From the sequence record SRR20825006_2737: a DNA stretch of 64,000 nucleotides; one strand, written 5' to 3'. Below are positions 47,723 to 52,428 of the stretch, piece by piece. The notes below the pieces were generated by a model. The model made no database searches. It saw only the letters and a program-made list of their open reading frames with translations, and was not told where the DNA came from. Both the position numbers and the translations under genes were made by a program. The first letter of the stretch is position 1, and every line of letters begins with the position of its first letter.

Positions 47723-47953
47723 GGTCGCTTTGAGTTGGTCGTTTTAAACTCGGCCGCTCCGGCGACCTGGGTGAAAAAACCACAGGTCGCCAGGAGCGGC
47801 CTCGCCCCAATAGTCATATCGACGTCACGTAGCGACAACTCCATGGGCGAATTCGCTCAATTGGCACAGCAGTTGCGATTTGATCCCTCTGAGGCGACAC
47901 CGCGAGCGTTCGCGTTTGTCGTTCCCAACAGTCTGAATCCATCAGAGGGCGCC

Positions 47954-48649
47954 ATGCGCGAAGAAATAAAGAACATCGACTGGTTGAACGTGTTCGACCA
48001 AGAACCGGACGTTGGCCTAACGGTCGTCGAGGACAATGGCCAGATCATCCACTTCAACCAAGCCGCCCTTCGCTTGTTCGGCGTCGACGACGAAGACTTG
48101 CTCGGTAAAAGTCTTCACGACGTTTTTGCGGAGGAATACGTGCAAGAACGAATGTCATGGGTCCGGGAAGTCATCGACACCAACAAAGCGCTTCGAGCGA
48201 CCCATATCTATTGCGGCCGAATGTTGGTCTCGTCGTTCTATCCGCACCGCGATGGCGATCGAAATTTCGCGATCGTGCTGACCCGTCTGGATGGCATGCT
48301 GCCTGATGGTGACATCAAGGACACACAGAGTCAGTTCATCGATTTGGGTCCATTGTCGGTACTCAGTCCTCGTGAGCTGGAAGTGCTGGTCTTGCTGGGG
48401 CAGGGCAACAGCGTCCCCGAAGTTTCGCGTTTGCTTTACCGCAGCCCGCGGACAATCGAGCGTCACAAAACCGAAATCGGCCACAAGCTTGGCGTTTCAT
48501 CGATCGCGCAGCTCACTCGCTTGGTCGCTCAGGCCGGTTTGAAACCGGAACACCTGCCACTGCAGCGATTCAACGCTGTCCCGAAGCCTCACCAATGCAC
48601 GCCAGACTTGTTGCCAGTCAACATCGAAGCCTCCACGTCATCCGCCTGA
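47954..48649 (+). CDS. PAS + LuxR-type HTH transcriptional regulator
   Basis: FNQAALRLFG..LLGKS PAS motif; LSPRELEVL..SPRTIERHK..KLG HTH. Confidence 0.85.
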   Translation: MREEIKNIDWLNVFDQEPDVGLTVVEDNGQIIHFNQAALRLFGVDDEDLLGKSLHDVFAEEYVQERMSWVREVIDTNKALRATHIYCGRMLVSSFYPHRDGDRNFAIVLTRLDGMLPDGDIKDTQSQFIDLGPLSVLSPRELEVLVLLGQGNSVPEVSRLLYRSPRTIERHKTEIGHKLGVSSIAQLTRLVAQAGLKPEHLPLQRFNAVPKPHQCTPDLLPVNIEASTSSA

Positions 48650-48732: not shown

Positions 48733-48817
48733 GCCCAGGTGGTGGAATTGGCAGACACAGGGGACTTAAAATCCCCCGGACGTTTAGTCCTTGCGGGTTC
48801 GAGTCCCGCCCTGGGTA
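48733..48817 (+). tRNA. tRNA-Leu (anticodon TAA), CCA not encoded
   Basis: GCCCAGG acceptor stem, GGAATTGGCAGAC D-loop, GGGGA-CTTAAAA-TCCCC anticodon arm, long variable arm, GGTTCGAGTCC T-arm. Confidence 0.96.
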
Positions 48818-49300
48818 CTGATGAGTGCCGTCGCACGGTATCGCGGCGAGTAGAACTGCGGTTTTCACTGGTCTTTCAACAGTTACCCATTCCACCCCGT
48901 CGTTCGTCTTCGCAGTTCGCTACTGCGAAGTGGGGTGCATTTTGGGGTGGGACACTCTTTGTTGCAGGCGGATGCATGACCGATCAGCAACATTCCAGCG
49001 CGCAGAAATGACTCGTTGTTGATCTTTTGTGAATTGCCGAGGACTTTTCGCCGAGTCTTTGTGTGCAACGAAGCACCCTCATTCGCCGCTTCGAAGAGCT
49101 CACCTTGTTGACCGCCGAATAGCAGCTTGTTGCTGGGTAATTACCCCCGCCGATGAAACGTACAACGAGGGCACCGGGTCCGCCCTAGAGTCACAACTGG
49201 CTAATTCGGTGCTGGCAGATCTTCAAGCTACAAGACAGAAGCACCGTAAACGGGTGTCATCACGAAGCCGCTTTCAATTGCTGTGAAAAGGCTTTGGCTC

Positions 49301-49543
49301 TCAGAAGTAGCTTGCCTTCTTCGAACCGCACACTATTCCCTGCGGTAAAAAAACTTGTTTGCTCGTAGCGACTCGATCGTCAATTATGACATCAAGCCGG
49401 CCCGTGTTGGACTTTTCAGACTGCTTTGGGAATTCACGCAGCACGACGAAGTCAGGACCAACCTGTGCCAATGAGTAAACTTGACCGGCCAGAAACAGCT
49501 TGATCACGACTTGTGCCGAGTAAGGACTTCGTCTTCTAACCAT
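49301..49543 (-). CDS. Small beta-rich hypothetical protein (80 aa), head-to-head with the kinase-like gene
   Basis: MVRRRSPYSAQVVIKLFLAGQVYSLAQVGPDFVVLRE...FLPQGI; its ATG is the complement of CAT at 49541-49543. Confidence 0.55.
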   Translation of the reverse strand: MVRRRSPYSAQVVIKLFLAGQVYSLAQVGPDFVVLREFPKQSEKSNTGRLDVIIDDRVATSKQVFLPQGIVCGSKKASYF

Positions 49544-50057
49544 GGACCAGTTGACATCAGAGGAACGAGCGTCGGCGTACTGCAAAAAACGATGTTCAGT
49601 ACCTGATTTTGGCAATCTGCTGGGAATGGGCCAAGAGGGGTCTGTCTGGCCTACAGATAATGAAACCGCAATAAAGGTATTCGACCGGGAACGAAACTTC
49701 AATTCTGAAGTCAGTTGCTACGAAATCCTCCGAGACAACCAAGTTTACGAAATCGATGGATTCACGATTCCCCACTTGATAGACAGCGATTCAGAGCTTC
49801 TTGTCGTCGAGATGACGATTGTCGCTCCTCCATTTATTCTCGACTTTGGAAAAGCCTACATCAACCAACGACCGGATTTCTCTGAATCGGTAATGGAATA
49901 CTACGAGCAAGAGCGAGCAGAAATGTTTGAGGGTAATTGGGACTTGGTTGACTCAGCCGTGTCGTCGCTTGAGCAATTCGGGATTTTCTATTGGGACGCG
50001 AGACCCGGCAATATCGATTGCCGGAATCACCCGCTGGCAAAGCAGAACGACGGATGA
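49542..50057 (+). CDS. Minimal protein-kinase-like protein (171 aa) with atypical motif order
   Basis: LGMGQEGSV Gly-loop, AIK, helix C Glu, ILDFGKA at aa 99-105, GIFYWDARPGNI at aa 147-158. Confidence 0.7.
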   Translation: MDQLTSEERASAYCKKRCSVPDFGNLLGMGQEGSVWPTDNETAIKVFDRERNFNSEVSCYEILRDNQVYEIDGFTIPHLIDSDSELLVVEMTIVAPPFILDFGKAYINQRPDFSESVMEYYEQERAEMFEGNWDLVDSAVSSLEQFGIFYWDARPGNIDCRNHPLAKQNDG

Positions 50058-50144
50058 ATGTCGCCTGCACTTGTTCATCCGACGAATTGCAGAGGCTGTC
50101 CTCGGACCACTGAATTGGTAAGCACAGTTCTTTCAGTGTCGCTC

Positions 50145-50196
50145 AAGAAAAAAGCCGCTTCGGCGTGAGCGGTGATCGCTGACGCTGAAACGGCTT
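50145..50196 (-). terminator. Rho-independent terminator for the DUF3500 gene
   Basis: aagaaaaaagccg...cggctt long hairpin; the A-run on + is a U-tail on -. Confidence 0.65.
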
Positions 50197-50256: not shown

Positions 50257-51303
50257 TCAGGGAGCGACTGGCAAATCGAAGTCGCCAGACAAGTCTCGGT
50301 AGACGCAGTGAATGTGGTTGGCCGGATTGCCCGCCGGATCGGCTTGCGTGTTCACAAACTCGATCAAGAAACGTTCGCCTTGCACGCGGTAGTAGTGGCC
50401 GATGCCGGGCTCAAGGGCTCCGGCCCAGGCAAAGTGAACCTTGCTCCAACCGTCCGACTCAATCTGTTGCGACCGTTCGGCAGCGACTTCCTCGGGTGCG
50501 ACTTGGACATACAAGTCGACCAAATCTCGAAGTTGCTTTTGTTGATCCGGGTTCAAACTCGAGTAAGCAATCCCTTCGGGTTCCCCAACTTCAGGTTGAG
50601 GCTCGCCAGCGAATCGAATTTCAGCCAAAGCTTCTTCCGCGAATCGGGCGACTTTGATCTGGTTGGCATCCAACGAGTTCACAAGCTTGAACGCGAGCTG
50701 TTCTTCTTGGTTCAAAACTGCGGTGCCCTTGCCGAGCGTGACGCTGGTTTCGTTTTTTACGACGGCGGGGTTGGTCGCCATGAATTGCGGTGTGGAATCA
50801 ACCACCTTTCCACCACGGCAGACAAAGTTGAGCGACAAGTGGTGGCCTTCGAATGACAATCCCCATCGTGCGTCTTCGCCCTCCGCTTTGACATCGCCAA
50901 ACAACGTGACGTAGTAGCGTTGTGGGTTACGTTCCCAAGTTCCTTTACCAGCTTCCATCTCGTTGAGGACTTCCTCCAGCAACATGATCCGGTTGGCTTT
51001 GCTGTAACCTGCTTCGCTGAGTGCGGAACGAAGAAGGCGCAAAGCGGCCGTTCGCTGAGCATCATTCATCTGCTCGAGCATCAAGCCTTTGCGTTCCTTC
51101 TTTGGAATGAAATGCCAACCGACTCGCTTGGGCGAATCGAACGCCATCACAGCGTCAGCCTTTTGCTCCGTTGTCAGCGTATCCACAAACGCGACGGCAA
51201 AGGTTTGCATTTGTTCGGCGGGAGAAGCCGCCAGCTTCCAACCTGCGAGGCCGACGACCGCGACGGCGAAAAGAGAAAGCGTGGCAAAACGAATTTTGTT
51301 CAT
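50257..51303 (-). CDS. DUF3500 domain protein, secreted
   Basis: WHFIP..RKGL, LSEAGYSK, WGLSFEGHHLSLN, YYRVQG, NHIHCVYRD. Confidence 0.85.
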   Translation of the reverse strand: MNKIRFATLSLFAVAVVGLAGWKLAASPAEQMQTFAVAFVDTLTTEQKADAVMAFDSPKRVGWHFIPKKERKGLMLEQMNDAQRTAALRLLRSALSEAGYSKANRIMLLEEVLNEMEAGKGTWERNPQRYYVTLFGDVKAEGEDARWGLSFEGHHLSLNFVCRGGKVVDSTPQFMATNPAVVKNETSVTLGKGTAVLNQEEQLAFKLVNSLDANQIKVARFAEEALAEIRFAGEPQPEVGEPEGIAYSSLNPDQQKQLRDLVDLYVQVAPEEVAAERSQQIESDGWSKVHFAWAGALEPGIGHYYRVQGERFLIEFVNTQADPAGNPANHIHCVYRDLSGDFDLPVAP

Positions 51304-51381
51304 GGCGGGGTAGTGAAAGGGAGGAAGTGAGTCTCGGAGCAGCAATCGATCCGAAAGGTGGGAATCCGGCGGAGCGGGAAA

Positions 51382-52428
51382 TCAGCCACGTAGGGTAATT
51401 GATTCCGTCGTCGGAAACACTCTCAGCGGGTGCCACAATTTGCCATGGGGGCGAAGTATCGCGACCAATTCCCCCCAGGGGCCGGAGGAACCATCCGAAC
51501 GATCGACCCCGATGCAATCCAAAACATCCGTGTTTCGATCGAACGTGTCGACCTGATCGATGCAGCCAATCCACTCTTCCGGCAATGGTTCAGCCGGTGC
51601 TTCGGGGGTTCCTGAGATACGAATTCCGGCTTGAAGCATGCCGATTTGCTGCCTGTCCAGATTCATCGCCGGCATGTGCGTCAGCCCCTCGATCGCAGGA
51701 CGGAGGTATTTCAACATCGGTTCAGGTGACATTTTTTCGCGGTCATCATCATCAAACATGAACGCGCAATCGAGCGTGTCGTCCAAAGTGAATCGCCCAA
51801 CCTCGTTTCGAATCAACTTGGTCATCACCGCTGCGCATCCGCAAGCGGCAGCAACATCCATCCCCAGCGTCCGCAAGTAAGTTCCCGAACCACACCGGAC
51901 GTCCAATCGCATCATCGGCGGCTCGTACGAAATCAGCTTCACCGAGTCGATCAGAATTCGGCGTTTGGGCATTTCAAAATCTTCGCCACGACGCGCCCTT
52001 TTATGGGCTCGTTCCCCGTCGACCTTGATCGCCGAATGAGCCGGCGGGGTTTGTTCTACCACGCCGTGAAAATCCTCGAGCACTTGTTCGATCTCCGCCG
52101 CCGTCGGCAACTTGACGCCCGTTTGCGTGACCAATTCGGATTCCAAATCGCCTGACTCGCTCGATACACCCAATCGAAAATCAGCGAGATACCGTTTGCC
52201 ATGCTGCAGCACCCAAGGGGTCAAACGCGCCGCCGAACCAATCGCTAGCAACACCAACCCTTCCGCCAACGGATCGAGCGTTCCGGTGTGCCCGACCTTC
52301 AATTTGCGAAGCCCAAATTCACCGCGCAGTCGCCTCTGGGCGCGGTTGACTAAATCTCTTGAGGTCGCACCCGGCGGTTTATAGCAAGGCAAGAAACCGA
52401 GCGGTGAATGTTCGCCGTTGGGGTCCAT
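51382..52428 (-). CDS. truB: tRNA pseudouridine(55) synthase
   Basis: KPPGATS, KVGHTGTLDPLAEG, QTPPAHSAIKVDG, CGSGTYLR. Confidence 0.93.
   Translation of the reverse strand: MDPNGEHSPLGFLPCYKPPGATSRDLVNRAQRRLRGEFGLRKLKVGHTGTLDPLAEGLVLLAIGSAARLTPWVLQHGKRYLADFRLGVSSESGDLESELVTQTGVKLPTAAEIEQVLEDFHGVVEQTPPAHSAIKVDGERAHKRARRGEDFEMPKRRILIDSVKLISYEPPMMRLDVRCGSGTYLRTLGMDVAAACGCAAVMTKLIRNEVGRFTLDDTLDCAFMFDDDDREKMSPEPMLKYLRPAIEGLTHMPAMNLDRQQIGMLQAGIRISGTPEAPAEPLPEEWIGCIDQVDTFDRNTDVLDCIGVDRSDGSSGPWGELVAILRPHGKLWHPLRVFPTTESITLRG

Follow-up and report, generated by a model that had tools for sequence, protein, structure and literature searches.

A divergent gene pair with overlapping start codons encodes a minimal kinase-like protein and a predicted beta-barrel partner

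The DNA examined here, hereafter the window, is a stretch of 64,000 nucleotides (nt) from sequence record SRR20825006_2737. Our subject is a pair of divergent genes within it, which encode a kinase-like protein of 171 amino acids (aa) and a protein of 80 aa predicted to fold as a beta-barrel. An earlier note on this DNA had pointed out that the palindrome CCATGG at 49540–49545 supplies the ATG of both open reading frames (ORFs), one on each strand, and the letters and the ORF list confirm this. The pair and its junction are laid out as follows.

49542–50057 (stop codon included), plus strand: kinase-like gene, 171 aa, taken from the ORF list and supported by homologues, a structure model and a match in the PADLOC database
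49301–49543 (stop codon included), minus strand: gene for the predicted six-stranded beta-barrel partner, 80 aa, taken from the ORF list and supported by conservation of the divergent arrangement
49541–49544, both strands: shared CATG, a 2-nt overlap (plus-strand ATG at 49542–49544, minus-strand ATG at 49543–49541)
49544–49702, minus strand: open stretch of the minus frame, antisense to the kinase gene, that would give the 133-aa reading; judged non-coding and not conserved in relatives

The start of the small gene deserves a comment, because its frame is open back to a TTG at 49702, which would give a protein of 133 aa. We rejected this longer reading: the frame is open for only a short way beyond the conserved ATG, on its upstream side, in L001, L002, L006, L013, L014 and one copy of L012. 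Indeed, the minus frame is shut within a few codons upstream of that ATG in many relatives, and the 80-aa start chosen in the earlier note is thus upheld. All 133 residues of the minus reading were aligned by tblastn in several loci; since in this phase third codon positions on one strand fall on those of the other, however, both the openness of the longer frame and its tblastn similarity probably follow from the kinase gene on the other strand.

We then turn to the relatives, for which 83 sources, namely the window and 82 loci, were scanned with profile hidden Markov models (HMMs) of the two proteins; eight of the sources lack the cassette, being loci of flanks or of the empty site. The kinase HMM matched 75 of the 83 sources, and the small-protein HMM matched 73 of those 75, always on the opposite strand and directly upstream of the kinase gene, while the two kinase loci with no small-protein match (L052 and L081) end at a contig edge. 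The conserved opposite-strand ORF that the earlier note wished to see beside kinase homologues is, therefore, present at every one of the 73 loci with enough room to hold it. The junctions number 77 and collapse to 69 distinct ones, and 57 of these have a CATG whose two ATGs are in register with the reading frames that the HMMs matched; the lack of intergenic space, first remarked in the window, is conserved as well. The remaining 12 junctions read as listed below (MAG, metagenome-assembled genome).

L001, L014, L051 and L075: CATG present, but the plus-strand ATG is not in the kinase frame
L044 and L064: CATATG, with zero gap and zero overlap
L005: CATTATG, with a 1-nt gap
L015, L082 and L076: kinase start codon GTG or TTG, overlapping the small gene by 11–13 nt
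L003 (genome G001): CACG; the kinase gene is a pseudogene
L080: CATG present, both genes frameshifted, in a nanopore MAG

Even with these variants, the spacing from start to start is confined to −13 to +2 nt, that is, from a 13-nt overlap to a 2-nt gap, and the relatives that keep such spacing encode proteins only about 30–40% identical to those of the window. When 60 CATG junctions were aligned, furthermore, the CATG itself held the sole positions above 1.8 bits, and the neighbouring positions, including −16 to −2, carried 0.2 bits at most. From these comparisons of sequence we conclude that both ORFs are real conserved genes and that the zero-spacer junction is a conserved feature of them. 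The whole cassette also occurs in tandem duplicate in L012/L053 (Aeoliella sp. SH292), L013 and L072. Each of the tandem copies has its own shared CATG, and L013 and L072 each contain one kinase copy with a frameshift or truncation.

The 171-aa protein had been called kinase-like in the earlier note, and fold matches, conserved catalytic residues and the PADLOC match all bear this out. Its homologues are 154–189 aa long, and a profile search of 1.84 billion representatives collected 1244 cluster representatives at E ≤ 0.001, of which 334 reach E ≤ 1e-30; most have 160–170 aa. The structure model has a predicted local distance difference test score (pLDDT) of 93.4. All 14 Foldseek matches at E ≤ 0.001 are kinase-like, the best being APH(2''), RIO1/2, PRPK and CK2. 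VIA, which is independent of Foldseek, gave a kinase fold for 50 of the 50 matches listed (Z 8.0–5.7), with alignments running from the N-terminal helix to the catalytic loop (78–133 residues, root-mean-square deviation of 2.4–5.0 Å). Among 154 homologues, the glycines of the GxGxxG loop are kept in fractions of 0.97 (G28), 0.99 (G30) and 0.98 (G33), as are K45 (0.99), E56 (0.99), D152 (0.93) and N157 (0.92). The catalytic loop of Ser/Thr kinases has the motif D-L-K-P-E-N; that of the window protein, D-A-R-P-G-N, resembles it, and the pattern conserved in the family is D-x-x-P-x-N. A profile search against PDB sequences returned weak matches (E 0.005–0.3) to the N-lobes of BMPR2 and TGF-beta receptors and to the catalytic-loop region of S6K.

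What follows the catalytic loop is short, as the chain ends about 14 residues past the catalytic Asn, N157. The DFG motif that comes after the catalytic loop, the activation segment and the helical C-lobe were not found in their usual place in the 171-aa protein. By its model and its conserved residues, the protein has a minimal protein-kinase-like fold, namely the N-lobe and the catalytic loop of a Hanks-type Ser/Thr kinase with nothing after them. An invariant D-F-(G/A)-K is placed at residues 101–105 (window 49842–49856), between the hinge and two helices and before the catalytic loop; D101 and F102 are kept in 99–100% of the 154 homologues. Judged from its sequence, this motif could be a relocated metal-binding DFG.

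Profile libraries placed the protein in only one described family. Pfam gave no family at E ≤ 1 for the window protein, and in 25 family members its sole kinase-domain match was PIP49_C, in one member at E 0.29; NCBIfam gave no match to the kinase-like protein. Two leads from the Atlas, YrbL-PhoP_reg (0.93) and Phage_T7_kinase (0.93), were discarded, as these families are absent from the Pfam results at E ≤ 1. In PADLOC, by contrast with these libraries, the window protein matches the model PDLC01137, “ST_Kinase”, at E 8.5e-33 over profile positions 21–161 of 162, and two distant relatives match it at 3.7e-23 and 6e-28. The earlier view that the module could be assigned to no described system is thus to be amended for the kinase and retained for its partner, which matches no PADLOC model.

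The 80-aa protein, described as beta-rich in the earlier note, was modelled as a six-stranded barrel (pLDDT 90.4). It has 91 database homologues of 55–105 aa, of which the named ones are all “hypothetical protein” and none carries a Pfam family. For the window protein itself no match was obtained in Pfam (E ≤ 1, PF07238 included), NCBIfam or PADLOC, and a sequence search of the PDB yielded no meaningful match. The best structural match is the PilZ domain of Alg44 (4rt0), with a Foldseek E of 0.03 and a probability of 1.00; VIA aligned the model to the same domain over 66 residues (Z 6.1, 3.1 Å), with the barrels of Hcp and phage tails within 1 Z unit. PilZ is also the nearest Pfam-named cluster in the Atlas (score 0.82), which we take as a lead only. 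The motifs RxxxR and D/NxSxxG are the signature of cyclic di-GMP binding in PilZ domains, and neither is conserved among the homologues of the small protein. What is conserved is Ser9, kept in 59 of 60 small proteins; the N-terminal residues ahead of it are not conserved, and the loop reads A/S-Q-V-G.

It might nonetheless be argued that the 80-aa ORF is no gene, and that what looks like one is a conserved stretch regulating the kinase gene from its 5' side, or an antisense by-product of that gene. Bidirectional ORFs at a CATG are indeed common by chance in the window, where at 16 of the 237 CATG sites an ORF of 80 aa or more runs in each direction, and in the window alone the pattern is no rarer than chance; it rises above chance because the small ORF and the in-frame CATG recur across related loci. 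The ORF lies outside the kinase coding region and so cannot be its antisense shadow. Its conservation shows three-base periodicity, and the ratio of nonsynonymous to synonymous substitution rates (dN/dS) is 0.16 and 0.11 in the only two scorable pairs, with dS saturated at 1.4–3.6. A single open frame stands beside every kinase and looks broken in just 2 of the 69 junctions, both from nanopore MAGs. Taken with the 91 independently called homologues of similar length, the confident barrel model and the score of the complex described next, these points make the non-coding explanation hardly credible.

Co-folding of the two proteins, which the earlier note had proposed, supports binding at the level of the model. 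The interaction prediction score from aligned errors (ipSAE) of the kinase/barrel complex was 0.85, 0.84 and 0.85, against 0.05 for the best control; this mark is reached by 51 of 78 solved complexes and by 2 of 108 mismatched pairs. The runs share at least 85% of contacts, and the pLDDT of the partner is at least 86. On the small protein the modelled interface comprises residues 6–14, including Ser9, and 24–30, which are its most conserved segments; on the kinase it comprises the hinge (92–96), the start of the glycine loop (25–31) and residues 156–162. The kinase and the barrel are, therefore, predicted to bind each other.

The two genes appear to decay unequally. If nanopore MAGs are set aside, 11 loci carry a kinase gene that is broken or has a shifted start, and no locus shows either defect in the small gene. 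In genome G001, which carries the islet described below at 96% identity, a single T-to-C change at the base corresponding to window 49543 turns the ATG of the kinase into ACG and that of the small gene into GTG; the kinase gene there has two 1-nt deletions and TAA stops, and the small protein differs by 2 residues.

An alternative is that the two proteins work together as a mini-kinase that is an obligate heterodimer, or stand to each other as kinase and substrate; the barrel would then complete or activate the kinase, or Ser9 would be the phospho-acceptor, and the CATG would be an inherited accident without regulatory significance. The early end of the kinase, with no DFG or activation segment in the normal place, is what such a protein might look like, and the modelled partner contacts its hinge, the start of its glycine loop and the residues around and beyond the catalytic Asn. 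Ser9 lies inside one of the two interface segments. The kinase also matches small kinases such as OspG (4q5h_A, Z 6.4), which was deposited with an E2-ubiquitin conjugate, and NleH1 (4lrj_A, Z 6.0), and the junctions show no conserved promoter-like motif. Subunits needed in a fixed ratio are normally co-transcribed, however, and here they are encoded on opposite strands; the kinase decays while its partner persists, which is unexpected if neither works alone; and the junction is held within its narrow range of spacings in spite of the low identity of the proteins. We regard this explanation as rather unlikely, yet, with that of leaderless transcripts considered below, as one of the two main rivals.

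As for its surroundings, the pair sits in a variable islet, the borders and neighbours of which are given here.

47735–48649, plus strand: PAS plus LuxR-type regulator, a core flank gene, from the family scan
48733–48818, plus strand: tRNA-Leu (anticodon taa), the left border of the islet (ARAGORN; Rfam tRNA, 54 bits)
48823–50145: variable islet of ~1.3 kb that carries the cassette, directly 3' of the tRNA-Leu, absent from four congeners and low in guanine and cytosine (GC)
50155–50172, minus strand: terminator-like hairpin of the DUF3500 gene, part of the core genome and outside the cassette
50257–51345, minus strand: DUF3500 protein gene, a core flank, from the family scan
51382–52428: the next ORF after the DUF3500 gene, presumably truB-like from a reading of its translation

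The impression that the pair is more AT-rich than its flanks holds, the GC content being 0.46–0.50 over 49300–50050 and 0.55–0.60 in the flanks. The site is empty in four congeners, as seen by alignment in G020, G018 and G022 and by coordinates in G012; in these genomes the tRNA-Leu lies ~80–105 bp from the terminator of the DUF3500 gene, and window ~48823–50145 is therefore a 1.3-kb insertion. The DUF3500 hairpin is kept in the genomes with the empty site. Of the earlier description of the pair as standing alone between a tRNA-Leu and a terminator, accordingly, the tRNA-adjacent islet stands, and the terminator is to be reassigned to the neighbouring gene. No convincing direct repeats were found at the islet borders, and the tRNA was the only Rfam match. 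The 3' flank of tRNA-Leu(taa) is also a hot spot of insertion: the interval from the tRNA to the DUF3500 flank is filled with other DNA in G010 (~2.8 kb) and G007 (~10 kb), and the first ~140 nt past the tRNA (48819–48958) are common to the window, G007 and G010.

The distribution is as patchy as the earlier note had supposed, the kinase being present in 24 of 61 related genomes and in 9 of 23 in the nearest genus. Carriers span Pirellulales, Planctomycetales and Phycisphaerae, together with single MAGs labelled Rhodothermales, Actinomycetota and Chloroflexia. The latter three (L064, L069 and L080) may reflect either horizontal transfer or binning error. Among cultured carriers are Stieleria marina K23_9 (L031), Aeoliella sp. 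SH292 (L053) and Pirellula staleyi DSM 6068, in which the homologue of the small protein is P0171. The Pfam families of flanking ORFs differ from locus to locus, none occurring in more than 2 of 62 ORFs on the small-gene side or more than 2 of 61 on the kinase side. By crude calls of the longest ORF, the neighbour points toward the cassette in 40 of 62 cases beside the small gene and in 34 of 61 beside the kinase, figures too rough to build on. A few flanking ORFs match models of Cas1c, Cas7c, Cas7g, Cas3, restriction-modification, Fic or integrase proteins.

The PADLOC label suggests that the cassette could be an accessory unit in CRISPR-Cas adaptation. The PADLOC text places the kinase with a putative adaptation module operon beside I-C systems in Rhodopirellula, and single flanking ORFs match the four Cas models just named. 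The neighbours in the window are, nonetheless, a tRNA-Leu and a DUF3500 gene; no Cas family was met in more than one flanking ORF per side (Cas1c in 1 of 61 and Cas7c in 1 of 62); and the cassette is found in many unrelated contexts. A role tied to CRISPR-Cas thus seems quite improbable to us.

How, then, could two such genes be expressed? As there is no intergenic DNA, the promoter of either gene lies inside or beyond the ORF of its partner, and because the two ATGs overlap, any 5' leader is antisense to the start region of the partner unless both mRNAs are leaderless. This exception amounts to an explanation in itself: both mRNAs would begin at the A of their ATG and overlap by 2 nt, and the CATG would be a shared point of bidirectional initiation. 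Such a start point would account for the retention of the exact tetranucleotide amid drift in the 15 nt on each side, and no conserved purine-rich stretch was seen ahead of either ATG. There is a precedent as well, in that leaderless mRNAs have been recorded from divergent genes whose overlapping 5' untranslated regions (UTRs) are processed by RNase III (PMC3386247). Against leaderless transcripts, no −10-like TANNNT is placed near −12 on either strand (0–2 of 60 junctions), no AT-rich peak was found just upstream of either start, and CATATG, CATTATG and variants with an 11–13-nt overlap are tolerated. A literature search on transcription start sites in Planctomycetes, furthermore, yielded only a single study, on Sinorhizobium, and no promoter consensus for the phylum. 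We consider initiation at the CATG on both strands to be distinctly unlikely.

Our own reading is that the cassette is real, self-contained and horizontally moving, that its two genes are expressed reciprocally, and that the kinase is an effector and the barrel its inhibitor or regulator; we offer it tentatively, as somewhat short of an even bet. The barrel, of ~78–80 aa, would dock on the hinge, the glycine loop and the catalytic-loop region of the kinase, of ~165–170 aa. RNA polymerase at the promoter of one gene would occlude the promoter of the other, and the leaders, if present, would be complementary to the start region of the partner. The outcome would be reciprocal expression, either of one gene or the other or in a set ratio. 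More weakly, the kinase may be a costly effector that the small protein inhibits or regulates stoichiometrically, in the manner of toxin-antidote or defence-island modules; we favour these roles because of the binding model, the context in the islet and in a defence database, and the asymmetry of decay. A stronger version would make the cassette a portable either-or switch, in which the promoters of a harmful kinase and its inhibitor are fully interleaved in the partner genes, the CATG is selected for ruling out independent expression, and the whole acts as an addiction or anti-phage module. In addition, the kinase might use D101 as a relocated DFG-like Asp and be completed or gated by the barrel. 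This version we think unlikely.

Several points weigh against the reading of effector and inhibitor under reciprocal control. The score of the complex expresses the confidence of a model and is not a measurement. The asymmetry of decay is modest, with P about 0.01–0.03 if breaks are proportional to gene length, and the loci so counted are not independent of one another, while assembly errors may account for some of the breaks. A consensus scan found no promoter-like site, and no promoter-like motif at a fixed distance was found on either side of 60 junctions by logo or by a count of TANNNT, whose starts 6–40 nt upstream reach at most 3 of 60 junctions per offset on the plus side and at most 7 of 60 on the minus side. 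The CATG could also persist as a frozen accident, and not through selection for interference, in that two overlapping ATGs can be pulled apart only by a precise duplication. Few of the neighbours are defence genes. Two small genes are adjacent here at all loci with room, and their products are predicted to bind; classical type II toxin-antitoxin systems are, however, co-directional operons with a DNA-binding antitoxin, whereas the kinase/barrel pair is divergent and no DNA-binding domain was found in it by Pfam and NCBIfam scans.

Among described systems, the kinase family has so far been recorded only as a PADLOC profile, and our search found no paper on the ST_Kinase family. The window protein matches most of that profile, but the PADLOC description lacks the partner gene and the shared start codons, and the window gene is not beside cas genes. 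With the minimal or atypical kinases, namely RIO1/RIO2, Bud32/PRPK, aminoglycoside phosphotransferases, the archaeal RNA kinase Ark1, OspG and NleH1, it shares the fold from the N-terminal helix through the catalytic loop (Foldseek E 3e-4 to 3e-3) as well as GxGxxG, the beta3 Lys, the alphaC Glu and D-x-x-P-x-N. Unlike them, it stops early, has DF(G/A)K before the helices and always comes with a divergent barrel partner. The small protein has the PilZ domain of Alg44 as its best structural match, tied with the barrels of Hcp and phage tails, but has neither a Pfam hit nor the PilZ motifs.

Parallels for the arrangement of the genes are found in EcoRV and CfrBI. These are also mobile two-part modules, in which the divergent core promoters overlap, RNA polymerase cannot hold both and transcription is coupled (PMC5333194). 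The promoters described there are intergenic, whereas the cassette of the window has no intergenic region, its start codons overlap and its promoters are inferred. Excludons have been described as well (PMC3377988): the long antisense RNAs (lasRNAs) of Listeria and the S. aureus pairs tagG/tagH and pdf1/SA0943 give divergent transcripts that are antisense at their 5' ends, with reciprocal or coordinated control and processing by RNase III (PMC3377988 and PMC3386247). Such cases have intergenic DNA, and their long leaders are optional; in the cassette, the geometry of the genes imposes antisense overlap if the two mRNAs are not both leaderless, and this geometry is conserved across many lineages. 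Surveys find divergent gene overlaps to be strongly under-represented in prokaryotes and explain this by the need for upstream control DNA (PMC2174442). In the literature that we searched, no description was found of the barrel partner, the predicted complex or the conserved overlap of start codons.

In conclusion, the pair brings to light a family of very small kinase-like proteins, hitherto unstudied and comprising 1244 cluster representatives, in which each member examined has a dedicated partner that belongs to no known family and is predicted to bind it. The cassette is ~750 bp long, small enough to be transferred whole into a test host. With a 2-nt overlap of start codons kept at 57 of 69 distinct junctions, it is a naturally occurring case in which to test how two genes come to be expressed when no intergenic DNA lies between them.

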